Shown here: positions 1 through 41,248 of the stretch, one piece after another | Position numbering within the stretch: position 1 is the stretch's first letter | Layout of the letters: each line of letters starts with the position of its first letter | NCBI GenBank assembly: GCA_028867145.1 | Contig: JAGWGX010000001.1 | Location: 27,829-91,828, forward strand | From: Candidatus Micrarchaeota archaeon | GTDB taxonomy: Archaea; Micrarchaeota; Micrarchaeia; Micrarchaeales; CABMGC01 | Length of the DNA: 64,000 bases | Direction of reading: 5' to 3' | Position numbers and translations under genes: made by a program | The notes under the pieces: model-generated | What the model saw: the letters and a program-made list of their open reading frames with translations, nothing else | Databases searched by the model: none | What the model was told of the DNA's origin: nothing

Positions 1-2
1 CA

Positions 3-1592
3 AACATACAAAACCCGCTTGCCACAGTCCAGCAGTGGCTACCGATACTTGCGATTGCGATTTTCCTCTCGATCTCCTTTGCTGCGATACTTTACATGCT
101 TGGGAAAATCCTAAACGACCCGCAGATAAGCGCAAGGGGGCTCTCCGAGCTCGGGCAGGGAATCGGCACTGCGATATTTGCAGTCCTCGCGGTAGGCGTC
201 CTGCTCTTCTTTGGCACATTCATCTCTGGGTCAACCCTCTTCACTGGCGGATTTTCAACAGATATATCAAACATCTGCGCGGGCTTCTCCTCCCCTCAGG
301 TGCAGCTTGCGCTTGTTCAGCAGAATCCGACCACGCTAATGTGCACGATAGTTAAAGGCACAAACGGGGGGGGCGTGGACGCGACACCGTATCTAAACTA
401 CGGGCTTGCCTCAAGCTACGTAATAATTGCAAACCTCACCAACCAGGCCGCAAACAACATAAACAGCCTGTATGTCTACGAGGGATTCGTGGGATTTTTG
501 AGCACGCTTGTTTCAGACCCGGGCTTTTGCGAGCCTGCCCCTTCATGCACCATTCCGGTGGTGCAAAGGCTCTTTTCGGTTGACGTCTCCTCAAAGCCGC
601 TCGCTGGCTACTCGCTTATTAGCTCAATGACAAGGCCAGTAGAGTCGCAGGCGGTCTTCATCTTCTACATGCTGCTCACGCAGATGGTGGTATTCATAAT
701 ACTCATAAATATCTGGCCATACCTTCTTGCTGCGGGAATTCTTCTAAGAGCCCTTCCCTTCACAAGGAGCGCAGGGGGGCTGCTGATGGGACTCACTCTT
801 GTCATAGTGATAATACTTCCGCTTGTCACAATGATCGAGTATGGGGCTCTTGCGCACGGGGTCACCACGAGTCAGCTTGCGGGCAACGCGGCGCAGATAC
901 AGGACCATATGCTCTTTGGCCTAAAGAGTACGGGCTCAACATTTAACATTGCATGGGGAGATGGGACAAGCGATACGAAGACGCTAAGCCATACTTACCA
1001 GACGGCGGGCACTTACTCAGTTGTAGCAACTGTGACTGACTCAAATGGAGGACAGACAACAGCTTCGCAGCAAATTGTCTTGCCCCCTGTGCAACAGTAC
1101 CAGCCGCCCGCAAGCCCAAAGCCAGCTCTTTACATGAGCAACCCTGCAATAAGCGGACTGAGCGTCTCAGTCTGCCCAACGGGAACGGCGGGAATCTGCA
1201 CCCCATATGACTCACTCCTTCCAAACTTTTATGTCTTCCCAAGCCTCCAGCAGATAATAAACTACAATGACTGCTGGCCCCAGGACGGAAACCTTGGGCT
1301 TGAAGAGGCTAGCGACTCGCTTATCATGGCGACGCAGCTGGGAGTTGGAACGGGCCTTGAGTTTGGGGGATTCGTGCAGCAAATTCCCGACCTAAAGGGT
1401 GCAGGGATAAAGTGCTCGCCTCCAGAGGCGATTGCAAGCACGCTGCAGCTAATGGACGTGTACGGAATGATGTCGGTCGTTGGATTCATAATTCCGCTCT
1501 TCAACATACTGATAATAATCTCTGCAATAAAGAACATGTCGTATCTCTTCGGAGGGGACACAGACATCGCCGGGCTTGGCAAGTTGGTTTAG
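3..1592 (+). CDS. Polytopic membrane protein, paralog 1 of 4 (5'-partial at window edge) with a PKD-like domain in a loop
   Basis: The reading frame is open from the window edge, with no in-frame stop before the ATG at 96. Upstream residues QQWLPILAIAIFLSISFAAIL form a TM helix that aligns with QQWLPVAFAVILLSFMIAAIV of the 3905..5062 paralog. PKD-like signature WGDGTSDTKTLSHTYQTAGTYSVVATVTDSNGG. Family motif GILLRALPFTRSAGG. Confidence 0.75.
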   Translation, partial: NIQNPLATVQQWLPILAIAIFLSISFAAILYMLGKILNDPQISARGLSELGQGIGTAIFAVLAVGVLLFFGTFISGSTLFTGGFSTDISNICAGFSSPQVQLALVQQNPTTLMCTIVKGTNGGGVDATPYLNYGLASSYVIIANLTNQAANNINSLYVYEGFVGFLSTLVSDPGFCEPAPSCTIPVVQRLFSVDVSSKPLAGYSLISSMTRPVESQAVFIFYMLLTQMVVFIILINIWPYLLAAGILLRALPFTRSAGGLLMGLTLVIVIILPLVTMIEYGALAHGVTTSQLAGNAAQIQDHMLFGLKSTGSTFNIAWGDGTSDTKTLSHTYQTAGTYSVVATVTDSNGGQTTASQQIVLPPVQQYQPPASPKPALYMSNPAISGLSVSVCPTGTAGICTPYDSLLPNFYVFPSLQQIINYNDCWPQDGNLGLEEASDSLIMATQLGVGTGLEFGGFVQQIPDLKGAGIKCSPPEAIASTLQLMDVYGMMSVVGFIIPLFNILIIISAIKNMSYLFGGDTDIAGLGKLV

Positions 1593-1593
1593 A

Positions 1594-2832
1594 ATGAAGG
1601 CAATGGTATTCGTGGTTGCGTTTGCGCTCCTTCTCCTAGCCGGAAGCTTGCATGCGCAGGTTGTGCTGCCGGCGCAGGGAATCTGCTCGGATCTTTTTGG
1701 GCAGGTTGGAGCAAACGGCCAGGTCACGCCCGGCAGCATACAAAGCGCGCTCCCAAAGCTCACAGACTTCACAGGATATAATTTTATGCTGCTCTTCTCG
1801 CTAGAGATAGTGCTTGCGGTTCTGATGGTGCTTGCTATAATGTACGCGATAGCCACCGCGTTTGGAATACAAAGGGTGATAACTTTTGTGAGGACGGAGT
1901 ACCTTGAGAGCGTGCTGAACATAGTGATAATCGTCCTGCTGTTCGGTGGAATCGGGGTGCTTGCGGGCGGAATCGGATTCATCTCGAACCTTGGCGCCTC
2001 CGTGGTGAGCTCCTCGGGAGTGCAGCAGGTTGGCAGTTACACTCTTTCTCTGGCAAGCTCTTCTAGCATAGGCACAATCACGCAGGTCTACAACTCGATT
2101 TGCAACACGTACTTCAACGATGCGGTCTTGCACTTTGCGGGGCTTGGGGCGCTGAGCAATGAAAATCTGATTTACAGCATAGCCTCCGGGCTTGAGATAC
2201 AGGCGATGCCAAACGGGATGGGGATAAAGTTCTCACCCTTCTTTGGAATAACCCCTTTTGTGCAGGTGCTCAGCTTTATGACGCCGCTAATCACCGGCGC
2301 GATTATCGTGGAGCTCGGAATAATCTTCCTCCTGGGCCTCATCTACTATCTCTTCCCGATCTTCCTCTACTTGGGGATCTTGCTTCGCTGCCTTCCGTGG
2401 ACAAGAGCCGCGGGAGGAACGCTCCTTGCGCTCTTCATAGGATTTTATGTCTTCTTCCCTGCGCTGCTATACCCGTTTGCCTCGATAGACTATAGGTGCC
2501 TTGCGGGGCAGTCAAGCAGCTGCACGCTCCAGCCCCAGCAGACGATCAACCTTCCTCCCGTTCCCTCAACTGCCCAGTGCCCATCGCTTGCCCAGAGCAT
2601 AGCATGCGCCTTCTCCGTCGCGCTAAATGTTCCCGCGCTGCGCACCTTCTTCTTTGAGGGTCAGTTCATAGCGCTTCTTGACTTTTGGATCTTCTCGATA
2701 ATAAACGCCTCGTTCCAGATCTTCGGGGTGGTGATCTCGTTTGTGGTCTCGTACAGCCTGCTTGAGGGCTTTGCGGACCTGCTTGGCGCCCCATCGCTTA
2801 CGGCAAAGAATCTCTTGAGGAATGTTATATGA
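1594..2832 (+). CDS. Polytopic membrane protein, paralog 2 of 4 (signal peptide MKAMVFVVAFALLLLAGSLHA)
   Basis: The ORF track starts at TTG 1576. ATG 1594 lies 1 nt after the upstream stop and gives a clean signal peptide. Multiple TM helices. Family motif GILLRCLPWTRAAGG. Confidence 0.7.
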   Translation: MKAMVFVVAFALLLLAGSLHAQVVLPAQGICSDLFGQVGANGQVTPGSIQSALPKLTDFTGYNFMLLFSLEIVLAVLMVLAIMYAIATAFGIQRVITFVRTEYLESVLNIVIIVLLFGGIGVLAGGIGFISNLGASVVSSSGVQQVGSYTLSLASSSSIGTITQVYNSICNTYFNDAVLHFAGLGALSNENLIYSIASGLEIQAMPNGMGIKFSPFFGITPFVQVLSFMTPLITGAIIVELGIIFLLGLIYYLFPIFLYLGILLRCLPWTRAAGGTLLALFIGFYVFFPALLYPFASIDYRCLAGQSSSCTLQPQQTINLPPVPSTAQCPSLAQSIACAFSVALNVPALRTFFFEGQFIALLDFWIFSIINASFQIFGVVISFVVSYSLLEGFADLLGAPSLTAKNLLRNVI

Positions 2833-3905
2833 ACTTTGAGCCGCTCTTATTTGTGAACAGCTGCCTGAGTAGCATAAACGGATTCCTAAGCGCCCCAATC
2901 ACAGGATGGTTCCCGGTCGCAGTGCTTGGTACCCTTGCGACTGCCTTCATAATAGCGCTATTCTACGTAATTGAGCCGTTTGTGAGCAAGCGATCAGACT
3001 CGAGGGCATGGACTCGGGCAAAGCTCTACGAGACATTCTTCGCCTTCCTGCTGGTTCTAATCTTCGGCGGAATAGCAAGCATGTTGTGCACGGTGAATCC
3101 GGTGCCCACATACTCTAGTGTCGGACTTGTGCCAAACGCATGCAATCCAAGTCTCGCGGGAGGAGACCAGAGCATAAACAACATCTTTGCTCTCGCGGAG
3201 TGTAACCTCTACAACTTCAACAAGAATATAGTAGACTTCCTAAACTACATGATTGCTCTCATAACCTTCCTTGTCTCAAGCGCGCCAGGTGTGGGGCTCG
3301 CAGAGAACTTCCTCCCAGGGGTTAGCAACTTTGGTTTCTCGCTGAGCTTCGCAATTGATGCATCGGCGATAAAGCTCTTCTTTGAAAGCGCGGCGATTGC
3401 GCTAGGCGGGCTCATACTCATCTCGCAGGTGCAGCTTGTGCTGCTTGACGCCTCAATGGTGCTCTTTGCAATACTCCTGCCGCTTGGTCTGATCGCAAGG
3501 ATATTCGGGGTCACAAGGACATTTGGCGGCGCAATGATAGCCTTTGCAATGGGGCTCGGGGTTGTATTCCCGCTGATGATTAGCATAACATATGGATTCC
3601 TTGGTAGCGCCATTGATAGCTTCAACCCGCTTAGCTCGGTGAGCGGGGCGCTTGTGGGAGGGATAGAGGCGCTAGGAAGCAATCCAGGCCAGATCCTGCA
3701 GGGGACCTCACTTGCGTTCTTCAGCCTTGGCAAGGATCCCTTCCAGGTTTTCTATACCATGTTTGAGTACATAGGGATAGGGCTTGTTGGCACGCTCATA
3801 CTTCCAATTATAACATTTACGATAGTAAATACATTCATACTTGACTTTTCGCAGGCGGTGGGAGAGAGGATGGACTTCTTCTCGCTGCTCACTAGGGTGG
3901 TTTGA
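2829..3905 (+). CDS. Polytopic membrane protein, paralog 3 of 4
   Basis: ATGA start/stop overlap with the upstream gene. About 7 hydrophobic segments. Family motif GLIARIFGVTRTFGG. Confidence 0.7.
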   Translation: MNFEPLLFVNSCLSSINGFLSAPITGWFPVAVLGTLATAFIIALFYVIEPFVSKRSDSRAWTRAKLYETFFAFLLVLIFGGIASMLCTVNPVPTYSSVGLVPNACNPSLAGGDQSINNIFALAECNLYNFNKNIVDFLNYMIALITFLVSSAPGVGLAENFLPGVSNFGFSLSFAIDASAIKLFFESAAIALGGLILISQVQLVLLDASMVLFAILLPLGLIARIFGVTRTFGGAMIAFAMGLGVVFPLMISITYGFLGSAIDSFNPLSSVSGALVGGIEALGSNPGQILQGTSLAFFSLGKDPFQVFYTMFEYIGIGLVGTLILPIITFTIVNTFILDFSQAVGERMDFFSLLTRVV

Positions 3906-5062
3906 TGAGAGACAAAATTTTTATTTTTGTGATTCTGCTTTTGTCCCTAATTATAGGCAGTCCTTCCGCGCAGGGCACAGTGCAGTCCGTTGGCGCTTGC
4001 GCTACAAACCAGTTTGGGGTTGCGGAGATTGCGCCATGGTACTGCACAAGCATAAATCAGGTAATATATGGGGAGTGGCAGCAGTGGCTTCCTGTCGCAT
4101 TTGCTGTGATACTCCTCTCGTTTATGATAGCCGCGATTGTCTTTGTATGCGGTGTGGCGCTTAGGAACCAAAAACTCAGGGAGTTTGGAGTTGGGGAGAT
4201 ATATGAGGCAACTGCCTCCGCAATTATCGCAGGCCTTTTCATGACCATAGCTGCGGTTATGCTTGGAATTGTTCCGGCCAGCTTCACAGGACCTTCGGAC
4301 CCTTATGTAACCTCGTTAAACTACATCTCAACTACAATCACGCAGACAAACGGCCTAATCACTCATCTCTTTGCTACATTTTCTGTTGCAGCCTACTTCA
4401 CAAGCTTTAGCCTAAACGTGGGAGGCACTGTTGCGGCAGGCACCGATACAAGCTCGGCCACAACAATCTCAAAAGACGCAATAGGAGCGGTAAAGCAGTT
4501 TTCCGGGTTTTTCAAGAAGACAAACTCGCTCTTTTCCCCCGCGATTGACGCGCTCTTCATGGCGCCCGCGCAGATTCTCTCTGTCCTTTTGATGGGAGGG
4601 CTGCTGACATTGCATATAGAGTACTATCTGCTCCTTTTCGGGATGTATGCCGCGATACCTGTTTTCTTGCTACCGGGAATTGTCCTAAGATCCTTTATTC
4701 CCACAAGGAGCCTTGGAGGGATGTTCATGGGAATTGCGATAGCCTTCTTCTTTTTGATGCCCCTGATGTTCTCGGTCGCATACTATTTCACCCAGCAGGG
4801 CGTGGGCGGATCGCTTACAACCGCAACCGAGCAGATAACGCAGTTTGGGCAGGGAGTAGGCGCAGAGCAAAATGCTCTCACCCCGAGCAGCCCGCTTGTC
4901 ACAACCCTTAACAATTTGCAGAGCTCAATGGGCGCATACTGGCTTGCGATACTCTTCTACCCTGCAATGATAATGGCGCTCACCTACTTTGCAATCATTA
5001 CCATTGCGGATTTCATAGGCGGATTTGCGAAGGGATCTGGAAAGTTCATGTCGACGCTCTAG
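3905..5062 (+). CDS. Polytopic membrane protein, paralog 4 of 4 (signal peptide MRDKIFIFVILLLSLIIGSPSAQG)
   Basis: TGATG overlap with the upstream stop (the track start TTG 3902 is 1 codon earlier). Family motif GIVLRSFIPTRSLGG. The N-terminal TM pair aligns with paralog 1. Confidence 0.7.
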   Translation: MRDKIFIFVILLLSLIIGSPSAQGTVQSVGACATNQFGVAEIAPWYCTSINQVIYGEWQQWLPVAFAVILLSFMIAAIVFVCGVALRNQKLREFGVGEIYEATASAIIAGLFMTIAAVMLGIVPASFTGPSDPYVTSLNYISTTITQTNGLITHLFATFSVAAYFTSFSLNVGGTVAAGTDTSSATTISKDAIGAVKQFSGFFKKTNSLFSPAIDALFMAPAQILSVLLMGGLLTLHIEYYLLLFGMYAAIPVFLLPGIVLRSFIPTRSLGGMFMGIAIAFFFLMPLMFSVAYYFTQQGVGGSLTTATEQITQFGQGVGAEQNALTPSSPLVTTLNNLQSSMGAYWLAILFYPAMIMALTYFAIITIADFIGGFAKGSGKFMSTL

Positions 5063-5089
5063 CCGGCCGATGCAGAGAGGAGCAAAAGG

Positions 5090-5099
5090 TTTATTTATA
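5090..5099 (+). promoter_or_regulatory. TATA-box-like element upstream of 5132 gene
   Basis: TTTATTTATA lies in the only sizeable gap (69 nt) inside the cluster, about 35 nt upstream of the predicted start. Confidence 0.25.
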
Positions 5100-5131
5100 G
5101 ATTTTTGGAGGATATGTATCGTAGGGATTGA

Positions 5132-5962
5132 TTGGTTAATCTAAGGAGCTTGCTTTTCATATCTTTTGTTGGAATCTCGCTAGTCCTAATGATAGTCACC
5201 GTGAACCTGCAGATCCCAGACTATGCGAAGATAATCTTCCTTGCGATAGCCCTCTTTGTCGACATCCTTGCCGCATCCACAAGGTACTACTCGTATCTTT
5301 TCATACCGCTCACAAAGATCAAGAACGGGACGATAGTGCTCGACACTGAGGAGCCATTTTACCTCTCCCCTTCAGGCAACGCGCTGATTGTGAGGGAGGG
5401 AAACGAGGTCTACGCGACCGCGTTCATCAAGATACCCGTCTACAAATCTGCGACAGAGATGAACGATGAGGAAAAGGTTGATTTTGCAAGGCTCTTTAGC
5501 AGAATAGTGAGCCTTAGCAGGACGCCCTTCAAGATAAGCACCCAGATGTACCTTATCAACAAGGACGATTACATCGCGAAGATTCGCGACAGGCTAAACC
5601 TAATTGAGGAGCAGTATCAAAAGGCACTCGTTGACAAGAGCACAACAACAGGCGCGATGGAGAGGCTCAAGGGGGAGGTGACGATGTGGCACAACCTGCT
5701 TGAGAGCATAGGAAGGATACAGTCACACGCACTGCTGAACTACGCCACTGTGACAGCACTTGGAACGACCGAGGAAGAGGCAACGGCGCTTGTAAACCAG
5801 CAGGCAGATGAGATTGCAGCGGGAATCGGCGCGATACTTGGGGTCACTGCGCCGCTAATGACCGGCGAGGAGATTCTGCTTGTGACGCAGCCTGATTTCA
5901 CCATACCTTTCTCAACAGTGAGCGAGAGCATCAGGCAGAAGACGGTTTCAGAGGGGTTGTGA
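5132..5962 (+). CDS. Bitopic membrane protein (2 N-terminal TM helices + about 200-aa soluble domain), paralog A
   Basis: TTG start in the track, so the start is uncertain. Hydrophobic N-terminus LLFISFVGISLVLMIVTV / IIFLAIALFVDILAAS. The soluble domain shares blocks (YAT, PFK, VY) with the next gene. Confidence 0.6.
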   Translation: MVNLRSLLFISFVGISLVLMIVTVNLQIPDYAKIIFLAIALFVDILAASTRYYSYLFIPLTKIKNGTIVLDTEEPFYLSPSGNALIVREGNEVYATAFIKIPVYKSATEMNDEEKVDFARLFSRIVSLSRTPFKISTQMYLINKDDYIAKIRDRLNLIEEQYQKALVDKSTTTGAMERLKGEVTMWHNLLESIGRIQSHALLNYATVTALGTTEEEATALVNQQADEIAAGIGAILGVTAPLMTGEEILLVTQPDFTIPFSTVSESIRQKTVSEGL

Positions 5963-5966
5963 AAAG

Positions 5967-6794
5967 ATGGATGAGGAGACAATAATTTACCTTGGATTCA
6001 CAGGCATGGTCGCACTCCTTGGAATCTTCTTTTCGGGAGGCTACGGGACGCTCTCTATAGTTGCAATTGCGCTTTGCGTCGCCACAATAGTTTTCATAAT
6101 CGTTATGAACTACGCAGATTTCATACTCTTCCCTGTTTTCACAATTATTTTGGGAATAAAGACGGAGGCCGCAAAGAACTACATGATCCCAAAGAACCAG
6201 AACTGCATAATAAAAAACGTGAACGGGCTCTACTACGCAACAGGCTATCTGACCGCCAACGTCTACAACTTTGTATTTGCGGCGGAGCGCGTTGAGGAGG
6301 GGGAGGATGCAAAGCTTGCCGCGGGGCCGGACAAGTGGGAGAGGATCGTGATGAACGTGAAATTCCCGTTCAAGTTCCATGTGATAAGCTACGCGAACGA
6401 GATCCAAAGCTACAGGGAGGAGCTTGAGGGCAAAAGAGGATTCCTCGAGTTCCAGCTCTCAAAGGAGATGCAGGCATCAAGCCCAAACCAGCTCACAATA
6501 GATGATTTCCAGAGAAGGATAAACATAATCCAGTCCAGAATCGAGCGTCTCTCATCTGGGGAGAGGCCGGTCGGCAGCGTGATGTACATCGAGAGCATTG
6601 CGGTGGGAGTTAGCGAGAAGGCGGCGATGGACGCGCTCACGACCCAAATCGACCAGCTCCAGACCGTCTTCAACTCAATGGACCTGAGCATAAATAGGGT
6701 GGTGGGAAGGGAGCTAAACATCCTCTTCAAGTTCGGGTTCAAGCTGCCTACCACCGCATCTGAGCTGGAGGGGCTATTCAATGTGCAGAAGTGA
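5967..6794 (+). CDS. Bitopic membrane protein (2 N-terminal TM helices + soluble domain), paralog B
   Basis: ATG lies 4 nt after the upstream stop. Same length (275 vs 276 aa) and architecture as the 5132 gene. Shared blocks include NCIIKNVNGLYYATGYLTANVY vs NALIVREGNEVYATAFIKIPVY. Confidence 0.65.
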   Translation: MDEETIIYLGFTGMVALLGIFFSGGYGTLSIVAIALCVATIVFIIVMNYADFILFPVFTIILGIKTEAAKNYMIPKNQNCIIKNVNGLYYATGYLTANVYNFVFAAERVEEGEDAKLAAGPDKWERIVMNVKFPFKFHVISYANEIQSYREELEGKRGFLEFQLSKEMQASSPNQLTIDDFQRRINIIQSRIERLSSGERPVGSVMYIESIAVGVSEKAAMDALTTQIDQLQTVFNSMDLSINRVVGRELNILFKFGFKLPTTASELEGLFNVQK

Positions 6795-6798
6795 AGTG

Positions 6799-6808
6799 TT
6801 TTTAATTA
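6799..6808 (+). promoter_or_regulatory. TATA-box-like element upstream of ATPase gene
   Basis: TTTTTAATTA is centred about 23 nt upstream of ATG 6827. The spacing fits a leaderless archaeal transcript. Confidence 0.3.
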
Positions 6809-6826
6809 GAACTGAGTGGTAAGTGT

Positions 6827-8335
6827 ATGACTTTGGTAAGGACGCAAAATCTGATGAGCAACGAGCTCGCCAAGAGAGTCTTCCTCAGCCGTCCCCCGGA
6901 GCCGCCTCACGAGTATTTGCTCAACGACCCAACAAACTCAATCTTCATAGGGATAACGAAGATCTTCGGGGCGCCGTTTAGCTGGACTTTTGCAAACCTC
7001 ACAAACCCGCACCTTGCGGTTGTCGGAATAACAGGAGCTGGTAAGTCCTTCTTCGTCAAGACCTTCCTTATCAGGGCAAGCTATGTCTGGAACACGAACG
7101 CGATAATAATTGACTGGGCTGGTGAGTACAGGGCCTGGGTGAAGCAGAGCGGGGGAACGGTCATCTCACTTGCAAAGGGAGACTACCTAAACATCATGGA
7201 CCTCTCCGGGATGAAGCCTCTGGACAGGGCAAAGCAAATCGTCAACTCGCTTGAGATACTAACTGACATCTCCCAGTACCCTGAGCAGAAAAGGCTGACA
7301 ACAGAGGCGCTTGAGCAGGCATATGTCAACCTGGGATTCAATCTTGCTTCGGTTCCAGATCCAAAGAAGGAGGCGCCAACGCTAAAGAACGTTATCTCGC
7401 TTCTTGAGGAGAAGCTTCAGGATGGGACATATGAGTATCCTGCGGAGCTTGAGAATGCGATCTATAGATTAAGGCAGTTTGCGCGTGAGGGAGAGGACTA
7501 CTTTGCAAGAAAGAGCACGCTTGACCTTGGAAAGCTTGTCTCATCGGGTCTAGTAGACCTTGACATCTCGGGACTTCCTGACGAGAGCTTCAGGGCGCTT
7601 GCGGCGCTCTTCATACTCCAGTCGCTAAAGGAGAAGATGCGAATGGAGGGATGGAGCTCATCAAAGGGGCTTCGCGCAATCGTTGTGCTAGACGAGGCAT
7701 GGAAGGTAGCAAGCGATGAGAGGAGCGATGCGGTTATGATTGTAAGAGAGGGAAGAAAGTACCAGTTTGGGCTGATTGTCGCATCCCAAAACCCGACCGA
7801 CATCAACGAGGCGATCTTCTCAAACGTCGGGACAACTGTGATACTTAGGATAAAGTTCGAGAAGTTCATGAACTACCTTCAGGGCTCGCTAAACTACTCC
7901 AACTTCATAAGAAAGGAGATCTCAAGGTTCGGAGTCGGTCAGGCTGCAATAGACATGTCCTTCCAGACCTCGGTACAGTTCCCGGAGATCTTCGTCATAG
8001 ACAAGGTCGTAGGGGAGATTCCGCTGGATGTTTACACACTATCAGTTGGCGACATAATGAACCAGGACGAGCTTGAGAATCCGGAGATGCAAAAGGAGTA
8101 CTACTTCGAGAAGATTGACCTGCGCAACAAGCTAATCGAGAGCAACATCGGAATTGAGGTGATAGAGAGCATCTTCAAGAGGCTAGATGACAAAAACAGG
8201 CAGCTCGACATCCGAGGCTTCATACAGGTGCTAAACGAGTTCAAGGTGGAGAAGCAGAACGTTATAATACTCCTAAGGAGCATAGGCCTTCAGGACATGG
8301 TGATAACAAGGGCGTTCACCTACATAGCGACGTGA
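6827..8335 (+). CDS. FtsK-HerA superfamily P-loop ATPase, VirB4/TrbE/CedB/HerA-like
   Basis: Walker A VVGITGAGKSFF. Walker B IVVLDEAWKV. Downstream REGRKYQFGLIVASQNPTDI block typical of VirB4/HerA-type ATPases. The 502-aa protein has no TM segments. Confidence 0.75.
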   Translation: MTLVRTQNLMSNELAKRVFLSRPPEPPHEYLLNDPTNSIFIGITKIFGAPFSWTFANLTNPHLAVVGITGAGKSFFVKTFLIRASYVWNTNAIIIDWAGEYRAWVKQSGGTVISLAKGDYLNIMDLSGMKPLDRAKQIVNSLEILTDISQYPEQKRLTTEALEQAYVNLGFNLASVPDPKKEAPTLKNVISLLEEKLQDGTYEYPAELENAIYRLRQFAREGEDYFARKSTLDLGKLVSSGLVDLDISGLPDESFRALAALFILQSLKEKMRMEGWSSSKGLRAIVVLDEAWKVASDERSDAVMIVREGRKYQFGLIVASQNPTDINEAIFSNVGTTVILRIKFEKFMNYLQGSLNYSNFIRKEISRFGVGQAAIDMSFQTSVQFPEIFVIDKVVGEIPLDVYTLSVGDIMNQDELENPEMQKEYYFEKIDLRNKLIESNIGIEVIESIFKRLDDKNRQLDIRGFIQVLNEFKVEKQNVIILLRSIGLQDMVITRAFTYIAT

Positions 8336-8339
8336 TAGT

Positions 8340-8636
8340 ATGGGAGCGACATTTGTGGTAAATAGGCTGGAGCTCAAGAGGATGCTAACAATGCTCAAGG
8401 TCAGCGACAAGACGATCGATGAGCTTGAGGCAAACCTCAACAGGCTCCACAGGCACGTGAACGCGGTCTCGTTCGCGGGAATGCTCCAGAAGGTGGGACT
8501 AAAGCAAAACGACATCACAAACGTCTTCAGGAGAATGGGGATAGACGACATAAACATAACAGAGATATTCAACGCTCTTGACGAGGAGAAGATAAACGAG
8601 ACCTTCGGCAAGATTGTGGTACTGACTGTGGAGTGA
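8340..8636 (+). CDS. Small helical protein homologous to the C-terminal tail of the adjacent ATPase
   Basis: Ungapped match FAGMLQKVGLKQNDITNVFRRMGIDDINITEIF vs ATPase FIQVLNEFKVEKQNVIILLRSIGLQDMVITRAF. Starts 4 nt after the ATPase stop. Confidence 0.6.
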   Translation: MGATFVVNRLELKRMLTMLKVSDKTIDELEANLNRLHRHVNAVSFAGMLQKVGLKQNDITNVFRRMGIDDINITEIFNALDEEKINETFGKIVVLTVE

Positions 8637-8640
8637 TTTT

Positions 8641-9102
8641 TTGGCAAGGAGCATCTGTGTTTGTTGCGGGAACGAGGCGGCGGGGCTGCCTGTTGAGGAG
8701 GACAGCGTAATCAGAGGGCTGCGATTTGTGAAGGCAAAGCTTCACATGAAGGTTAATAATAGCAAGCTGGTCTGGTGCAGGCAGTGCTATCCAAAACACG
8801 TGCACGCAACCGTGTCTGCAAGCAAGAATCAAAACAAGACAGGTGTTCCTGTAGTGGTCCTCCAAGATCCGGGTAGGCACCCGACAAGCTGGGTTGAGAG
8901 GGTTGGATATGAGGAATCAAGAAGGAATTATGAGTCTCGCCAGATGACCTACATCGCAATAGGCGTGATATTTGGGATACTCGGGGTGCTGATCTCCTTT
9001 GGAATAGGGAGCATTATTGCAGCAATTGTGGTCATCATCTTCCTCTACCTGATGTCCCTGCTAACCTACACCCCAAAAATCGCGGTAAAAACAGCAAAGT
9101 AA
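8641..9102 (+). CDS. Zn-ribbon protein with C-terminal two-helix membrane hairpin
   Basis: TTG start. CVCCG...WCRQC cysteine pairs at the N-terminus. C-terminal hydrophobic stretch YIAIGVIFGILGVLISFGIGSIIAAIVVIIFLYLMSLL. Confidence 0.5.
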   Translation: MARSICVCCGNEAAGLPVEEDSVIRGLRFVKAKLHMKVNNSKLVWCRQCYPKHVHATVSASKNQNKTGVPVVVLQDPGRHPTSWVERVGYEESRRNYESRQMTYIAIGVIFGILGVLISFGIGSIIAAIVVIIFLYLMSLLTYTPKIAVKTAK

Positions 9103-9176
9103 TCTCGGTTTTTGCCCAAAAAGGGGAACATAAACTAATAAATATACTTAATAGATAGTAATAGAAGAGTGATTGG

Positions 9177-9899
9177 TTGCCTGAAGAGGAAATTGTGCCA
9201 AAAGTGGAGGAGATAACTTTTTCTGGAAAACTTACGGGCACCCTTGAGCAGACAAGGCAGAAGCTTGCTGCGATCCCCTTCTTTTCAACCAAGATAAACG
9301 GCGAGGAGCTAAACCTAGCGAAGGTCGAGAGCAGGAACATAAAGAAAAAGCCGTTCCTTTTCTACCTGATAACGATAAGGGCGGACTCTGTGAAGGTGGT
9401 CTACTCAATTGCGCCGGACACGAGCGAGAAGCTAAGGAGGCTCTACGTGATAAAGAACCTTGCCTCGGTCCTCTCGATAATATACGATTCCTACCAGATA
9501 GACACGGTCAAGTTCCTGCAGTATGTTGACTCCTCTATCGACGAGATGCTAAACTCACTATCGCAAAGCTACAGCACGCTATTTAACAAGTACGACTCGC
9601 TCCTATCTGAATACAGGGAGATGAGAAGGCTCAACCTCGAGCTCTCTGCCTCAAACCGCAACCTCACGATACAGACAACGCAGTTTGACGAGGACAACAA
9701 GCAGCTAAACGCCCAGCTCAAGGCGCTGCAGACCTACTCGGACGATGCGCTGATGGCGATGGTCCAAGACTGGATAGAGACGCACAACAACTCGATAGAC
9801 ATAACCGAATTCGCCGGCAACTACAAGATTGCGGCGCCCAGGATCGAGCAGATACTAGACAAGATGGTCTCGCTCGGGTACGTGGAGCTCAAGAGTTGA
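9177..9899 (+). CDS. Coiled-coil protein with C-terminal winged-helix-like domain
   Basis: TTG start (uncertain). Heptad-rich segment LSEYREMRRLNLELSASNRNLTIQTTQFDEDNKQLNAQLKALQ. C-terminal ITEFAGNYKIAAPRIEQILDKMVSLGYVELK resembles a wHTH. Confidence 0.5.
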   Translation: MPEEEIVPKVEEITFSGKLTGTLEQTRQKLAAIPFFSTKINGEELNLAKVESRNIKKKPFLFYLITIRADSVKVVYSIAPDTSEKLRRLYVIKNLASVLSIIYDSYQIDTVKFLQYVDSSIDEMLNSLSQSYSTLFNKYDSLLSEYREMRRLNLELSASNRNLTIQTTQFDEDNKQLNAQLKALQTYSDDALMAMVQDWIETHNNSIDITEFAGNYKIAAPRIEQILDKMVSLGYVELKS

Positions 9900-10057
9900 T
9901 GGCCGTGAAGTACTCCGCCACCGTAAACAAGAAGTTCAGGTACGTAAAGGTGTACAGGGTGGTTAAGAAGGTTAACCAAAGCACGAACGCGGTCTCGCAG
10001 TTCATGGAAAAGTTCGTTGACAAGTACATCTTGAAGAGAAACAAGGTTGAGGAATAG
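9899..10057 (+). CDS. Small basic protein (52 aa), translationally coupled (TGATG) to upstream gene; not in ORF track
   Basis: My translation is MAVKYSATVNKKFRYVKVYRVVKKVNQSTNAVSQFMEKFVDKYILKRNKVEE*. The ATG overlaps the upstream TGA. The only track ORF here is an antisense 69-aa ORF that looks spurious. Confidence 0.45.
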   Translation: MAVKYSATVNKKFRYVKVYRVVKKVNQSTNAVSQFMEKFVDKYILKRNKVEE

Positions 10058-10069
10058 GCGAGAAACCCC

Positions 10070-12448
10070 ATGGAGCAGAAATCAAAAAAACGAGGCATTG
10101 CGATAATAGCGGTGCCGATTGCAATAGTGATCTTGCTCCTTGCAGGGATTGTAATCTACACCCAGAGCACACTTGGCTCCATACAGGCGCACTCGGTCGC
10201 AAATAGCCTGGGGCAGATACGCTTCAACTTTTCAGTGGTGAGCAACGGCATTGCAACATATGGCAATGCGCAGCTAATCACCCCATATGTGGTCACAAAA
10301 TACACCTCAAGCAACGCAACCTTTCTTTCTCTTTACTTCAATTTATATTCCAGAAACCCGCTCCCCAACATCTACTACCTAAACACGACAAACTACTGCT
10401 ACCAGTGCTACAGCGACAGCGCACTCTTCGCAAATGTTAGCGCATACCTTGCAAGGTACGGGCTTGTAACTGCAACAAGCACGCTTAGCTACATAAATCC
10501 AAGCCAGCTCTCCAAGATTCCACGAAGTTCAATAATAATAGTTCCATCTGGAATACTTCCGGTCTATATGCTTCCAAATTCAGCATTTCCAATCAACGGT
10601 AGCGCCAGCATCTTGACGCTTCTAAACCAGAGCGACACTATACTTTATATCGGGACAAACTTCTCAAGGAGCTCCGCTCCGGGGGGGGTCATATTCTCAA
10701 ACTCTAATGCGACAGTCTCAAAGCTAAACAATGCGGGGCTCGTCACGCTTCCATTCGCAAACAAGAACGCAAGCAAGACCTTCTCCTACTTTAGCGCGCC
10801 AACATTCTCATTTGGCGTGGGCGGCTACTTTGGATACGCATCCTACGTCAATACCTACAACGGATCTATAGTGTCATTCACGAATACCCAGAGATCTGGA
10901 TGGCAGAACACAAGCGCGATAGGCTATGACATTGCAAAGACGCTAAGCACCCATTTTTGGCTGCATCCGCTTGCGAGCGGAGTTTACTCACAGGGATCTC
11001 CTGGCAGCGGCACTATCGGAATTCCCGCGCTCAACAGCACAATGATTAACAACAAGACGACAATCGCAAAAGTGGTCAACTCCTCATACGGAGTTGTGAC
11101 CGCCCTGATTTACAACTCGAGCAGCCTGATTGAGAGGGCGCTTCCTGTCAAGGTCGCCTACATCTCAAATGGGAGCCTCTCCATACAGCCATACCTTGGG
11201 CAGACGCAGAGCATCCCGATAGGGGTTAGCATAAACCTAAACTCCACAAGGCCGCAGCTTGTGATACCGCACATTGATTTATACAACAAGAACCTCACCT
11301 ACATAACAAGCATCTCGGTGCCCTTCTTCAACACGACCTCCAACATAAACATAATAAAGTACTACACCTTCCAGCTCCCCAGCGGCACATACCTTGCGGT
11401 ACTCAGGAACTTCTACAACAAGTACTACTCAAGCGCGTTCTTCAATGTTACAAACGTGACCCTGTCCCCGATCTCGCTCAACTTCAAGAACGGAAGCTTT
11501 GTGTTTTCGGTGAAGAGCAACAACATCCCAATCACAAACACCACCTACTCAATCGACGTGAACGGGGCATATAGGGTAAGCGGCAATGTGACAAACGGGT
11601 ACATACTCTACAACCTTCCAAGGGACACGGTGCTGGGGTACGGGACCGAGACGTTTAATTTGCAGATGTTTGGGAGCAAATACAGCTACAGTACCTCAAA
11701 TGTGCAGCAGGTGCTAAACATCCCGACAATATACATCGAGTTTGTGATTGTGGGGCTTGCGATAATAATACTAAACCTTATAGTGAAGCCGCCAAACAGG
11801 GATGAGTACTACATAGACGTGCCTGAGTTCCATGAGGCAAAGAAGTTCAACGTGAAGATAAACAAGGGCGAGATCCTAAGCGTGTTTGACAAGGTCAACT
11901 TCGCGTACCACTGGAAGTACATGCCGCTAACCCTGGAGGAGATAAAGAGCGGGATCAGCGGAAACATTAGGTACAACAACATCCCGGTCTCGATAACGAT
12001 GCAAAACGCGGCGATGATAATGAGCAAGCTTGCGCTTGAAAACGAGATCGTCTCATCCGGAGGGTACTATGCGCCAAAGAGGTGGACAAGCGATTCTGGA
12101 TACGACATCGAGTATCTCTCGATATTTAGGAGGATAAGGGACTACTCAGTCGGGCATGCAATCTTGTTCACGGACATCGGGGCAAGCGAGGCTGCGGACA
12201 TTACGCTGAGCAAGGGCGGCGGACAGACGCACATCATGATCTACTCAAGCCTCTCAGGGATAAAGAAGATAAATGTCTCGTCTGACCTCAAGACCTACAT
12301 AGTCTTTGCGGACGAGGAGAAGCTGCTTGGATTCACGGACAAGATCTACAGGTCGTATGGAAGCGAGGCCGAGATGCTAAAGATCGGGCTCTCCTACGGA
12401 TACATAAGGCTCGTCGAGGCAAACAACCTTGACCAGATAGTCTTCTAA
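10070..12448 (+). CDS. Large bitopic surface protein: N-terminal anchor/signal, about 530-aa sequon-rich ectodomain, TM helix, about 230-aa cytoplasmic domain
   Basis: N-terminal IAIIAVPIAIVILLLAGIVIY. Dozens of N-x-S/T sequons (NAT, NTT, NVS, NGS, NQS, NFS, NSS...). Second TM IEFVIVGLAIIILNLIV followed by a charged soluble C-terminal domain. Confidence 0.65.
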   Translation: MEQKSKKRGIAIIAVPIAIVILLLAGIVIYTQSTLGSIQAHSVANSLGQIRFNFSVVSNGIATYGNAQLITPYVVTKYTSSNATFLSLYFNLYSRNPLPNIYYLNTTNYCYQCYSDSALFANVSAYLARYGLVTATSTLSYINPSQLSKIPRSSIIIVPSGILPVYMLPNSAFPINGSASILTLLNQSDTILYIGTNFSRSSAPGGVIFSNSNATVSKLNNAGLVTLPFANKNASKTFSYFSAPTFSFGVGGYFGYASYVNTYNGSIVSFTNTQRSGWQNTSAIGYDIAKTLSTHFWLHPLASGVYSQGSPGSGTIGIPALNSTMINNKTTIAKVVNSSYGVVTALIYNSSSLIERALPVKVAYISNGSLSIQPYLGQTQSIPIGVSINLNSTRPQLVIPHIDLYNKNLTYITSISVPFFNTTSNINIIKYYTFQLPSGTYLAVLRNFYNKYYSSAFFNVTNVTLSPISLNFKNGSFVFSVKSNNIPITNTTYSIDVNGAYRVSGNVTNGYILYNLPRDTVLGYGTETFNLQMFGSKYSYSTSNVQQVLNIPTIYIEFVIVGLAIIILNLIVKPPNRDEYYIDVPEFHEAKKFNVKINKGEILSVFDKVNFAYHWKYMPLTLEEIKSGISGNIRYNNIPVSITMQNAAMIMSKLALENEIVSSGGYYAPKRWTSDSGYDIEYLSIFRRIRDYSVGHAILFTDIGASEAADITLSKGGGQTHIMIYSSLSGIKKINVSSDLKTYIVFADEEKLLGFTDKIYRSYGSEAEMLKIGLSYGYIRLVEANNLDQIVF

Positions 12449-23214: not shown

Positions 23215-23306
23215 AGCTCCATCGTCTAGTGGTCGCTACGCAAGTAGCCACAAAAGGATATCGCCCTCTGGAGGCGGTGACGCCAGTTCGAATCTGGCTG
23301 GAGCTA
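23215..23306 (+). tRNA. tRNA-Gln(CUG) with about 20-nt insert (putative non-canonical intron) in the D-loop
   Basis: Hand fold. Acceptor AGCTCCA/TGGAGCT + A73. D-stem GTCT/GGAT. Anticodon stem TCGCC/GGCGG with loop CTCTGGA. T-arm GCCAG-TTCGAAT-CTGGC. The D-loop is 28 nt and contains the hairpin GCTAC-GCAA-GTAGC (23235..23248). Confidence 0.75.
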
Positions 23307-23394: not shown

Positions 23395-23823
23395 ATGGCG
23401 CGCGAGCAATTCAAGGACCATGTGATTATCTGCGGATACGGCGTGGTGGGAGAGAGGATTGTGGAGATACTCCAGCAAAACAAGGTTCCCTGCATAGTGA
23501 TCGAGAAGGACATAAAGAAGGTTGAGTTAATTGAGGAGCGTGGGATTCCATTCATTGTGGGCGACGCGACATCCTCCAAGGCGCTAAAGGAGGCGGGAAT
23601 CGTTGATGCGAAGGCAATTGCGATTGTGATGGATGATGATGCAAAAAACCTCTTTACGGTCATAACGGCGAAGAGCTTAAACCCGAAGATAGTGATTGCG
23701 ACAAGGTCAAACGACGAGTTCTTGAAGAACAAGCTCGAGGGCGCGGGGGCGAACTTCATTGCCACGCCAAACATCTCGGCTAGCACCGAGCTCTTTGATG
23801 AGATACTAAAGGACCTGGGTTGA
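23395..23823 (+). CDS. Stand-alone TrkA-N/RCK (NAD-binding) domain protein
   Basis: VIICGYGVVGERIVEIL Rossmann motif. 142 aa with no TM segments. Confidence 0.75.
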   Translation: MAREQFKDHVIICGYGVVGERIVEILQQNKVPCIVIEKDIKKVELIEERGIPFIVGDATSSKALKEAGIVDAKAIAIVMDDDAKNLFTVITAKSLNPKIVIATRSNDEFLKNKLEGAGANFIATPNISASTELFDEILKDLG

Positions 23824-23827
23824 GAGG

Positions 23828-25338: not shown

Positions 25339-25367
25339 AACTTTAAATCGTAGAGGTATTGATTAAA

Positions 25368-26582: not shown

Positions 26583-26586
26583 GAGA

Positions 26587-28767: not shown

Positions 28768-28785
28768 TGAGTAGTGTGAGTTTGG

Positions 28786-29820: not shown

Positions 29821-29824
29821 TTAA

Positions 29825-41038: not shown

Positions 41039-41248
41039 CCTATCATGAGTAATTGCAATAATAGATTTAAATTATCTTCTTAATTAGATGGAATCTGATG
41101 TAAAGTTACTAATTTCTCCTCTCAATTCAAGACATTTAATTATTTGTTTAGGTATCCGCAAAATGTGCACATTTCGTTTGGGCGTCTTTGAAAAATACGC
41201 GATCTCCACCTCTTCAGGGGGTAACAACCAAGGCTTCAAAACTGGAAC

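Follow-up and report, generated by a model that had tools for sequence, protein, structure and literature searches.

The window analyzed here, a 64,000-nucleotide stretch from a Candidatus Micrarchaeota archaeon, begins with twelve co-directional and tightly packed open reading frames on the forward strand (positions 1 to 12448), designated G1 to G12. Re-reading the sequence reproduced the frames and all of the junctions, with their overlaps and tiny gaps, as given in the initial annotation, and recovered the contents listed there (ATPase motifs, tail copy, zinc ribbon, 52-aa basic protein, sequon-rich surface protein). G1, ending at 1592, does run off the window as claimed, with a frame that stays open as far as base 3 and an N terminus that lies upstream. 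It is followed by the genes of three more polytopic membrane proteins, namely, G2 (1594..2832; 412 aa, alternative TTG at 1576), G3 (2829..3905; 358 aa, ATGA overlap), and G4 (3905..5062; 385 aa, TGATG junction, alternative TTG at 3902). G5 (5132..5962; TTG start) and G6 (5967..6794) each encode two N-terminal transmembrane (TM) helices followed by a soluble domain, and G7 (6827..8335) encodes a P-loop ATPase of 502 aa. Next come G8 (8340..8636), a soluble, free-standing 98-aa paralog of the ATPase C-terminal tail, and G9 (8641..9102), a cytoplasmic CxxC...CxxC zinc ribbon with a C-terminal two-helix membrane hairpin. G10 (9177..9899; TTG start) encodes a soluble protein of 240 aa in which a coiled coil occupies the center and a winged-helix-like domain the C terminus, G11 (9899..10057; start at 9896 or 9899) a basic protein of 52 aa, and G12 (10070..12448) a protein of 792 aa. 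On the reverse strand, top6B (12452-13990) converges on the cluster end. Genes for large proteins with lectin domains are found nearby, as is a type IV pilus locus distinct from the cluster.

The window truncates the cluster, which comprises about 18 genes in close relatives. In these genomes, the DNA 5' of the region covered by the window encodes a pilin-like protein and four additional membrane proteins, two of which are polytopic paralogs, in line with the earlier expectation of further upstream components, a pilin among them.

The ATPase G7 and its separately encoded N-domain

G7 carries the Walker A motif GITGAGKS and the Walker B motif VVLDEAW, plus REGRKYQFGLIVASQNPTD, and consists of the C-terminal-domain ATPase alone followed by a helical tail of about 100 aa, with only about 55 residues ahead of Walker A. 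G8 aligns with residues 421-497 of G7 (hhalign 96.6%, E 5e-10). The best single Pfam match of G7 is DUF87 (1e-15), followed by AAA_10 (7e-13) and P-loop_TraG (9e-10), and the NCBIfam models CedD, HerA, VirB4, and CedB all match at about 1e-16. Among the profiles put forward for comparison in the initial annotation, DUF87, AAA_10, and HerA were matched, but Pfam CagE_TrbE_VirB was not, and no curated NCBIfam cut-off was passed (all four models fell about tenfold under it). For G7 alone, the scores of these four models, 57-61 bits, are not separable.

When the profile of the G7 family was compared with the PDB, the top match was 4ag5, a C-terminal domain of VirB4, aligned in one colinear stretch (E 2.6e-30), and the HerA matches were split. 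Across 40 diverse family members, the NCBIfam CedB model matched all 40 and the VirB4-like CD1110 model matched 39, against just 16 and 12 for the HerA repair models. In an exhaustive homolog search over 1.8 billion representatives, the nearest non-orthologous relatives of G7 were fused "2TM + N-domain + ATPase" proteins of 870-913 aa (E 1e-41 to 1e-48), interspersed with similarly scoring shorter family members. One of them aligns with CedB across residues 69-634 (1.5e-36) and adjoins a CedA gene (1.4e-25), and another adjoins CedA1 and CedA genes. On sequence grounds, these comparisons establish that G7 is an ATPase of the VirB4/CedB type that retains only the C-terminal ATPase domain, in keeping with the VirB4/HerA type first assigned to it.

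The N-domain is found in G5 and G6. Their suspected paralogy is supported by BLASTP within the cluster (2e-8) and by hhalign with alignments from 80 loci (97.3%). Against the N-domains of the fused CedB-like ATPases, the G5 profile gave 97.0% (E 9e-11) and the combined G5 and G6 profile 98.2% (E 6e-14). An AlphaFold2 model of G6 (pLDDT 80, pTM 0.63), compared by Foldseek with the PDB, found as top matches chains 8rtb_A and 8rtd_O/T/g (747-808 aa; probability 1.00-0.97) of the R388 type IV secretion system (T4SS), which we read as TrwK/VirB4; this is the VirB4 N-domain comparison that had been suggested for the bitopic proteins. In BFVD, the top matches were a "Component of type IV transporter system" and gp155 of Bacillus phage G (probability 1.00). 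The model predicts a VirB4 N-terminal-domain-like fold for the soluble domain of G6; the aligned region of TrwK was not seen. Taken together, G5 and G6 represent the N-domain of a VirB4/CedB-type ATPase, split off and duplicated. In VirB4 and CedB, the N-domain anchors the motor to the membrane within the same protein, whereas in Micrarchaeota it is encoded by separate genes and in duplicate; the two TM helices of each protein are analogous to a VirB3-VirB4N fusion. There is precedent for dividing the VirB4 N-domain, since the N-domains of CedB and CedD superpose on parts of that of R388 VirB4 (PMC11868833).

G7 might instead belong to a HerA-type DNA repair or antivirus defense module that is tethered to the membrane by chance. 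DUF87, which tops its Pfam matches, is the HerA central domain, HerA_Thermprot equals CedB in score for G7 alone, and several of the top PDB sequence matches are defense-system HerA proteins. We nevertheless deem this highly improbable: the roughly 55 residues before Walker A leave no room for a HAS-barrel N-domain, the family profile favors VirB4 and CedB, and the N-domain partner has a predicted VirB4 N-domain-like fold. Moreover, at least 10 neighboring genes encode membrane proteins, and neither NurA, Sir2, Duf4297, nor any other HerA partner was recognized in the cluster with Pfam and NCBIfam. Defense is excluded by architecture alone, since the PADLOC library was outside the scan.

Membrane, surface, and cytoplasmic components

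The initial annotation counted four paralogous polytopic proteins; the paralogy holds, but the number is six, two being encoded upstream of the window. Within the cluster, BLASTP relates G2, G3, and G4 to each other at 1e-10 to 1e-13 and G1 to these three at about 1e-6. Profiles built from the 80 related loci align with each other at hhalign probabilities of 96.7-99.5% (G1 with the upstream paralog U1, G2, and G4, 99.1-99.3%; G2 with the other paralogs, 98-99.5%). G1, which is 694 aa long in a full-length ortholog (L001), has a PKD-domain insert at residues ~279-326 of its 498-aa visible part (Pfam PKD_4, 5e-8), and G2 contains an R-x2-P-x-TR-x2-GG motif. The proposed relation of these proteins to VirB6 and CedA found little support. 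The AlphaFold2 model of G4 (pLDDT 74) is all helical, with very long helices; among its Foldseek matches in the PDB, chain 7o3v_G of the R388 VirB5-VirB6 stalk ranks second (probability 0.54, TM 0.21-0.27). Against a three-sequence CedA-like profile, hhalign gave 40% for G4 and approximately noise for the other five paralogs; none of the six showed significant similarity to CedA or VirB6, and NCBIfam returned nothing. G4 is a candidate VirB6/CedA analogue, and homology is undemonstrated.

The upstream pilin candidate, whose homology to VirB2 is undemonstrated, combines a signal peptide with two hydrophobic helices. It matches the full Pfam T4SS_pilin model at E 1.5e-4, under the gathering score; E values of 0.004 and 0.008 were obtained for another two members of the family, and two of the five members do not match. 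No similarity to CedA1-type pilins was detected. G12 has TM segments at residues 5-38 and 547-576, enclosing an outer domain of ~500 aa. It contains 25 N-x-S/T sequons where 12.5 are expected, 24 of them between the two TM segments. Its C-terminal cytoplasmic domain of ~215 aa is highly conserved, with invariant columns concentrated at 569-755, and G12 has no match in Pfam, NCBIfam, or the PDB.

Among the accessory proteins, G9 has a hydrophobic stretch at residues 100-149, and at least 80% of its 78 orthologs retain the cysteines C6, C9, C46, and C49. Residues 197-240 of G10 weakly match the CdvB winged helix (2xvc, E 0.017), along with coiled-coil matches, and G11 has 13 K and R against 4 D and E.

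Conservation in Micrarchaeota and probable function

The homolog search gave 372 species-level genome hits, of which the best 80 Micrarchaeota loci were fetched for synteny and alignments. The gene order U0-U1-U2-G1...G12 is colinear in nearly all of these loci with enough flank, with G8 found in 78 of the 80 and G11 orthologs in 56. Micrarchaeota loci thus share the synteny that had been proposed as a check. In distant genomes, the flanking genes change and the cluster remains intact.

Conjugative plasmids and integrated conjugative elements, archaeal ones included, typically carry a VirB4-family ATPase together with polytopic partners (PMC12102498, PMC9905601), and the cluster could on that account be an active or remnant element of this kind, that is, mobile DNA rather than a system of the host cell. 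We give this next to no credence. The order is constant and the ATPase 67-91% identical across the 80 loci (the best of the 372 hits), the GC content is no different from elsewhere in the window (0.48-0.53), the cluster is flanked by top6B and a KH protein both here and in a second locus (L091), and tRNA genes were called only at a great distance from it, at ~23, 35, and 48 kb. Besides ATPase families and the PKD domain, nothing in the cluster passed the Pfam or NCBIfam thresholds, and neither a relaxase nor an integrase or coupling protein was therefore recognized. The cluster is a chromosomal lineage trait of Micrarchaeota and not a mobile element, and the earlier statement that it does not look like a standard conjugative element stands.

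Two minimal loci were also found. L085 encodes a small 2-TM protein, a single polytopic homolog (97.8%), one N-domain protein, the ATPase, and a G10-like protein (weak match), and L081 encodes an N-domain protein, the ATPase, and G10 (hhalign 99.2%), a part list that resembles Ced/Ted.

Another reading would have the cluster assemble a pilus or surface filament for host adhesion, extruding the pilin-like protein and G12 without translocating a substrate. A pilin-like gene heads the cluster, VirB4 is needed for pilus biogenesis in bacterial T4SS (PMC12102498), the PKD domains of G1 and the sequons of G12 point to surface exposure, and the nearby lectin-domain proteins and type IV pilus locus suggest an adhesion-rich region. 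This remains possible but unlikely in our judgment: filament assembly alone poorly accounts for G9-G11, the conserved zinc-ribbon, winged-helix, and basic proteins of the cytoplasmic side, G10 stays beside the ATPase in L081, where no pilin or polytopic gene adjoins, and the related Ced and Ted systems both build pili and move DNA (PMC9905601).

The ATPase affinity, the N-domain homology of G5 and G6, and the synteny agree with the initial proposal of a distant, expanded VirB4/Ced-type relative, and we consider it probable that the cluster is an expanded variant of T4SS/Ced-Ted envelope-spanning machinery fixed in the Micrarchaeota chromosome. No description of this machine was present in the literature searched; it would be an undescribed and unusually expanded relative of the machines that serve conjugation (type IV secretion) in bacteria and Ced DNA import in archaea. 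In the inferred mechanism, G5 and G6 would dock a G7 hexamer to the membrane, and the six long-helix polytopic paralogs would form a membrane channel or stalk platform in the role of VirB6/CedA, with the PKD domains of G1 displayed at the surface. The upstream signal-peptide protein may be a pilin or conduit subunit. G12, putatively glycosylated at the cell surface and conserved in its cytoplasmic domain, could couple outside contact to the motor, and G9, G10, G11, and the ATPase-tail mimic G8 may serve substrate recruitment or regulation on the cytoplasmic side. By analogy, the substrate is most likely DNA or another nucleic acid, which would pass between a Micrarchaeota cell and its partner, either a host or a conspecific, in the manner of Ced/Ted import; there are no data on substrate or direction, and the cluster contains neither a relaxase nor a coupling protein or nuclease. 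The machine is a candidate route for the tiny symbiotic Micrarchaeota to exchange DNA or other large molecules with their hosts.

The 69-, 32-, and 74-nt intergenic gaps were confirmed, but each holds one A/T box, where only two of the three had been said to carry one. Read from the sequence, these are the TATA-like box TTTATTTATA (5090..5099, forward strand; 33 nt 5' of the G5 TTG at 5132), the A/T box TTTTAATTA (6800-6808, within the 32-nt gap), and the TATA-like box TAATAAATATA (9136..9146, forward strand; 31 nt 5' of the G10 TTG at 9177). TTTATTTATA is a possible internal promoter, predicted from sequence alone.

Layout of the cluster and its conservation across Micrarchaeota

According to our analysis, the packed cluster that the initial annotation had placed at positions 1 to 12448 of the window indeed consists of twelve co-directional open reading frames (G1 to G12), and the overlaps, the 4-nt gaps, and the three larger gaps between them were all verified. 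Each of the larger gaps carries an A/T-rich TATA-like box located 19 to 33 nt 5' of the next start codon, for which there are no data on promoter function. Since the reading frame of G1 is open back to the first bases of the window, this gene is cut by the window edge. The polytopic membrane proteins G1 to G4 are paralogous, as had been proposed: in a BLASTP comparison of the twelve proteins among themselves, G2, G3, and G4 are linked at 1e-10 to 1e-13 and G1 is linked to these at about 1e-6, and the bitopic proteins G5 and G6 match each other at 2e-8. Profile-profile comparison with hhalign, using alignments from 80 related loci, gave 96.7 to 99.5% for every polytopic pair and 97.3% for G5 and G6. 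The description of the smaller components likewise stands, since G8 is a free-standing copy of the tail of the ATPase G7 (residues 421 to 497; hhalign, 96.6%), the cysteines of the G9 Zn ribbon are conserved, the 52-aa G11 is basic, and the bitopic G12 (792 aa) contains 25 sequons versus 12.5 expected, 24 of which lie between its two transmembrane (TM) segments. In addition, a PKD domain is present in G1.

Proteins annotated as Candidatus Micrarchaeota include both near-identical and graded relatives of the ATPase G7. Scanning a single genome for each GTDB species identified 372 relatives, of which the best 80 are 67 to 91% identical to G7, placing the ATPase among the better-conserved proteins in these loci. 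When all cluster proteins were mapped onto the best 80 of the 372 loci, the order U0-U1-U2-G1-G2-G3-G4-G5-G6-G7-G8-G9-G10-G11-G12 proved common to nearly every locus with enough flanking sequence. The sequence 5' of the window was inferred from L091/L001, the nearest relative (its ATPase being 91% identical), and not read from the window's own contig. There, U1 and U2 are further members of the polytopic family, so that the number of polytopic paralogs is six and not four as initially counted. In the three genomes examined, three more co-directional genes, V1, V2, and V3, lie further upstream of the paralogs (L091:101-3254 in the closest relative, upstream of window position 1), and the cluster therefore comprises about 18 genes, of which the window holds only the last twelve. 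V1 (L091:101-514) encodes a protein of 137 aa in L091 and of 128 to 143 aa across the three genomes, with a signal peptide and two hydrophobic helices. V2 encodes a protein with about 11 TM helices (641 aa in L091), and a 518-aa protein at the equivalent position in L092 belongs to Pfam DUF2079. V3 encodes a 244-aa protein with 5 to 6 TM helices, whose C-terminal part is U0.

Downstream, the cluster abuts the core genes top6B and that of a KH protein, as had been noted, both in the window and in the closest relative; the flank is different in a distant genome. The GC content of the cluster is not distinctive. On the basis of synteny, flanks, and this undistinctive GC content, the cluster is a chromosomal trait that the lineage keeps by vertical inheritance. 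The earlier inference that it is not a standard conjugative element is borne out, since only the ATPase families and PKD pass the Pfam and NCBIfam thresholds, the 80 loci are syntenic, and core genes flank the cluster. Among the cluster proteins, Pfam and NCBIfam recognised no relaxase, coupling ATPase, or integrase, and no explicit search for att sites was made. The reading of the cluster as a mobile element was accordingly rejected on synteny, domain architecture, and neighbours.

Some loci depart from the common pattern. The metagenome-assembled genome MAS1.bin30 holds two cluster copies on two contigs (L026 and L067), both with ATPases 73% identical to that of the window, so that either the cluster is truly duplicated there or the bin is mixed. 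At L093:12831-14338, the ATPase gene looks broken (proteins of 180 aa and then 231 aa are called) and G8 to G12 are missing downstream, owing to either an assembly error or decay of the copy. Matches longer by about 250 nt in L049, L050, and L072 were ruled out as inserts, being an artefact of hit joining.

The ATPase and its N-terminal domain

G7 carries the Walker A and B motifs GITGAGKS and VVLDEAW and matches Pfam DUF87, AAA_10 (7e-13), and P-loop_TraG (9e-10). It does not match PF03135 (CagE_TrbE_VirB) in the Pfam scan. Among the NCBIfam models, CedD, HerA, VirB4-like, and CedB score equally (57 to 61 bits), all far under their cut-offs, and G7 alone can therefore not be placed; it falls short of the curated VirB4 models, with 35 bits versus a cut-off of 643 for TIGR00929 and 57.5 versus 700 for CedB. 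The VirB4 affinity that had been proposed for this ATPase emerges only at the level of the family, where three lines of evidence support it. The best solved structure for a profile of 40 diverse family members is the VirB4 C-terminal domain 4ag5 (E 2.6e-30), matched in a single colinear stretch (profile positions 57 to 370 versus 34 to 366), whereas HerA proteins match in two pieces. Of the same 40 members, all are hit by the CedB model and 39 by that of the VirB4-like protein CD1110, while two HerA repair models hit only 16 and 12 of them. Finally, proteins of 870 to 913 aa were retrieved at E 1e-41 to 1e-48 when HMMER was run exhaustively against 1.8 billion representatives; these rank among shorter G7-family members of like score and consist of two TM helices, an N-domain of about 270 aa, and the ATPase. 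In one of these fused proteins, P0171, the CedB model covers residues 69 to 634 (1.5e-36) and the gene adjoins that of a 291-aa protein matching CedA (1.4e-25); another, P0173, adjoins genes with precomputed Pfam CedA1 matches. We therefore think that G7 belongs on the VirB4/CedB side, an assignment that relies on profile proxies and not on a tree.

A HerA-type repair or defence ATPase is an alternative, given the tied score of the HerA model on G7 alone. However, neither NurA nor another HerA effector family was recognised among the neighbours of G7 with Pfam and NCBIfam, and we reject the HerA-repair and defence readings on synteny, domain architecture, and neighbours, albeit without a PADLOC scan.

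In G7, only about 55 residues precede Walker A, which is located at about residue 67, and it has neither a HAS barrel nor an N-domain. A VirB4-type N-domain is instead supplied in trans by G5 and G6, each composed of two TM helices and a soluble domain. The combined G5 and G6 profile aligns with the N-domains of the fused ATPases over 168 columns (hhalign, 98.2%; E 6e-14). An AlphaFold2 model of G6, built from an 83-sequence alignment (pLDDT 80; pTM 0.63), was compared with the PDB by Foldseek, and chains of the R388 type IV secretion inner-membrane complex occupied ranks 1 to 4 (probability, 1.00 to 0.97) and rank 7 (0.84), all other hits being noise. These chains are 711 to 808 residues long, and we take them to be TrwK/VirB4. 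In the viral structure library BFVD, Bacillus phage G gp155 and a protein named "Component of type IV transporter system" head the hits of the model, each with probability 1.00. The region of TrwK aligned with G6 is not resolved; G5 and G6 are nevertheless read as the N-domain, since G6 has no P-loop and since there is a precedent in the N-domains of CedB and CedD, which superpose on distinct portions of the N-domain of R388 VirB4 (PMC11868833). The simplest reading is that Micrarchaeota possess a split VirB4, with G7 as the soluble motor and G5 and G6 as two membrane-anchored N-domain subunits.

Two further features of ATPase relatives were recorded. Inteins that contain LAGLIDADG homing endonuclease domains interrupt the ATPase in the G7 orthologs P0122 and P0123 from other metagenomes; one of them sits close to the P-loop and the other follows about residue 297. 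In the Ced-like loci, the fused ATPases are for their part always followed by a conserved soluble protein of about 430 aa that matches no family (L083:3865-5145, L094:3445-4761, and L095:8742-10040), which may be an undescribed Ced-associated component.

Membrane partners, accessory proteins, and reduced versions of the cluster

Apart from the PKD domain in G1, nothing above noise was found in Pfam or NCBIfam for the non-ATPase genes of the cluster. The polytopic proteins are otherwise without a Pfam match (U1 and U2 were scanned with Pfam only) and without a match among PDB sequences, and neither G1 to G4 nor a single-copy homolog in the distant contig L085 matches the NCBIfam models of CedA or CedE. 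Attempts at bridging the paralogs to CedA with single- and three-sequence CedA-like profiles did not exceed 40% probability; with the three-sequence profile, hhalign gave 40% for G4 and at most 2% for the remaining five. Scanning metagenomes for CedA-like relatives yielded a single contig, an identical one. The place of the polytopic gene beside the ATPase is equivalent to that of CedA. In the AlphaFold2 model of G4 (pLDDT 74), very long helices form a bundle, and comparison of this model with the PDB retrieved chain 7o3v_G of the R388 VirB5-VirB6 stalk at rank 2 (probability, 0.54; E 0.29; TM score, 0.21/0.27) and 7o3v_J at rank 17. A shared R-x2-P-x2-R-x2-G motif that follows a TM helix is no more than suggestive. 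Profile searches of PDB sequences with the polytopic (A1), bitopic (A2), and G12 (A3) families yielded nothing useful.

The initial annotation had also anticipated more components upstream, such as a pilin. The further genes exist, while the pilin identity of V1 has only sub-threshold support: V1 matches Pfam T4SS_pilin over model positions 5 to 71 of 71 with E 1.5e-4, its 22.2 bits falling short of the gathering score (26.6). Two other members of the V1 family match at 0.0037 and 0.0075 and two have no match, and hhalign found no similarity (0.1%) between this family and the CedA1-domain proteins of L095 and L083. As for the accessory proteins, the centre of G10 is a coiled coil and its C terminus weakly resembles a winged helix (2xvc; E 0.017). 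No relatives of G8, G9, G11, G12, V2, and V3 could be recognised outside their own families.

Two distant archaeal contigs, L085 from SRR7777305 and L081 from GCA_040960315.1, hold reduced versions of the cluster. In L085, five adjacent genes encode an ATPase 28% identical to G7, whose best NCBIfam match is CedB (8e-23), an 82-aa two-helix protein matching T4SS_pilin with E 0.0075, a 291-aa polytopic homolog (97.8% to the polytopic paralogs), a 229-aa G6 homolog (96.1%), and a 232-aa coiled-coil and winged-helix protein. In L081, the ATPase is 42% identical and is accompanied by a G5/G6 homolog (99.2%) and a G10 homolog (99.2%). Judging from the gene content of these two contigs, the ancestral kit consists of the ATPase with a single polytopic and a single N-domain protein, accompanied by a pilin-like and a G10-like protein; the Micrarchaeota version is an expansion of this kit.

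Relation to known transfer systems and proposed role

The characterised systems closest to the cluster are Ced of Sulfolobales (CedA, CedA1, CedA2, and CedB together with CedD and CedE) and Ted of Thermoproteales (TedA, TedB, and TedC). Like the cluster, they are chromosomal, relaxase-less archaeal derivatives of type IV secretion systems (T4SS) that combine an ATPase of the VirB4/HerA clade having membrane-anchored N-terminal domains with polytopic partners and a small two-helix protein of pilin type, in the cluster a candidate only. Duplication is common to both, with CedA/CedE and CedB/CedD in Ced and the cluster's own paralogs. In Ced, the function of the VirB4 N-domain is shared out between two polypeptides (PMC11868833). 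The fused ATPases from CedA/CedA1 loci are among the nearest non-orthologous relatives of G7. In contrast with Ced and Ted, the N-domain of the cluster is wholly separate from the ATPase and occurs in duplicate, the polytopic paralogs number six where those systems have one or two, and the extra conserved parts G8 to G12, V2, and V3 have no counterpart. Moreover, the polytopic proteins and V1 match no CedA or CedA1 model, no NCBIfam Ced cut-off is met, and the bearer is a DPANN symbiont whereas those of Ced and Ted are free-living crenarchaea.

The bacterial comparison rests on the minimized T4SS inner-membrane complex VirB3-VirB4-VirB6-VirB8, exemplified by TrwM/TrwK/TrwI/TrwG of R388 (PDB 7o3v, 8rtb, and 8rtd). 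G7 is colinear with the VirB4 C-terminal domain, the G6 fold matches the TrwK/VirB4 chains, the TM hairpin followed by an N-domain resembles VirB3-VirB4 fusions, and the long-helix polytopic proteins bear a weak likeness to the base of the VirB6 stalk. Unlike in bacterial T4SS, VirB4 corresponds to three genes, the envelope is an archaeal single membrane with an S-layer, and the cluster proteins include no recognisable VirB8, VirB9, VirB10, VirB11, VirD4, relaxase, or lytic transglycosylase. In ecological terms, the nearest analogue is the chromosomal T4SS of Patescibacteria/CPR, an analogy of lifestyle and logic only, without demonstrated orthology. That system is MPF-FATA derived, lineage-wide, and relaxase-less, occurs in ultra-small episymbionts, and has been reported as essential for epibiotic growth in Saccharimonadia (PMC12102498). 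It includes VirB2-like pilins, and T4SS_pilin is the model weakly matched by V1; however, it is bacterial, its VirB4 is intact and found by standard HMMs, and it lacks the six-fold paralog expansion. The nanohaloarchaeal SPEARE proteins, giant proteins that embed a VirB4/TraG-like ATPase domain and are proposed to act on the host (PMC10266531), also tie a DPANN VirB4-family ATPase to a large surface protein, their relatedness to the cluster being untested. SPEARE is a single multi-domain protein with Ig-like repeats next to a canonical VirB4, whereas the cluster is multi-gene with a split ATPase. Altogether, the cluster is evolutionarily tied to, and by inference functions in the manner of, Ced/Ted and the T4SS inner-membrane complex, yet it stays under every curated threshold and differs in architecture by its split VirB4 with a duplicated N-domain subunit, its six-fold polytopic expansion, and at least five lineage-specific accessory genes. 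No description of it was found in the DPANN and Micrarchaeota literature searched on VirB4, T4SS, Ced, and HerA, and the Micrarchaeota studies searched do not mention such genes.

Our data thus show an ATPase that probably belongs to the VirB4/CedB clade, with its N-domain in trans as two membrane-anchored copies, and that is co-inherited with six polytopic paralogs, a pilin-like protein, and a sequon-rich bitopic surface protein. How these parts work together is inferred: G5 and G6 would dock a G7 hexamer beneath a channel or stalk formed by the polytopic paralogs, V1 would make a pilus or conduit, G12 and the PKD domains of G1 would provide contact with the outside, and G8 together with G9 to G11 might handle or gate the substrate. 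We favour nucleic acid as this substrate, since the closest characterised systems (Ced, Ted, and conjugation) move DNA and since the conserved cytoplasmic accessories resemble nucleic-acid binders (winged helix, basic peptide, and Zn ribbon); this remains an inference by analogy, and the direction of transfer is not shown.

To our knowledge, a machine dedicated to transfer has yet to be assigned in Micrarchaeota. The lineage-wide gene order, the well-conserved ATPase, and an origin traceable to the T4SS/Ced lineage make the cluster a concrete candidate for how DPANN archaea draw DNA, nucleotides, lipids, and proteins from the cells that host them. It can be tested in co-cultures that are already available, namely ARM-1 with Metallosphaera and A_DKE with Scheffleriplasma. 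A motor with two membrane-anchored N-domain subunits and a six-fold polytopic subunit is unprecedented for this machine family and bears on the evolution of T4SS-type machines and their fit to the archaeal envelope. In cryo-electron tomography of ARM-1, host nanotubes were seen to dock at a 21-nm barrel-like structure of the envelope that is as yet unidentified (PMC11329633). One speculative proposal, which we consider improbable at present, is that the cluster encodes a DPANN-specific host-contact nanomachine, in which a hetero-oligomeric ring of six different VirB6-like subunits matches the hexameric split-VirB4 motor, pulling nucleic acids or other macromolecules from Thermoplasmatales or Sulfolobales hosts or exchanging them with these hosts, and that it could be this barrel. 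In that case, the Patescibacteria T4SS that is essential for epibiotic growth would have its archaeal counterpart in the cluster.

Elsewhere in the window, a type IV pilus or archaellum-like locus lies at 23800-30800 (+), with a T2SSE-family ATPase at 26545-28098 (Pfam, 2e-33) and further open reading frames next to it. A functional link between this locus and the cluster is conceivable by analogy with Sulfolobales, where the Ced system works together with type IV (Ups) pili. A borderline 61-nt tRNA is called by Rfam at 23246-23306 (+) (30 bits) and is missed by ARAGORN. Four large proteins of 890, 738, 778, and 1152 aa are encoded in a row at 33392-45249 (-). Laminin_G_3/ConA-like lectin domains were matched in three of them, over as many as four stretches, and one of these three bears a PQQ beta-propeller as well. 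The 778-aa protein contains an InlB B-repeat in place of lectin domains. All four are candidate adhesins for host contact. The tRNA-Thr predicted by ARAGORN at 34679-34757 (-) is probably a false call, since it lies inside the open reading frame of the 890-aa lectin protein and has no Rfam support. Finally, an exosortase/archaeosortase-family membrane protein is encoded at 49598-51112 (+) (Exosortase_EpsH, 5.6e-13) and possibly processes surface proteins such as the lectin-domain ones.
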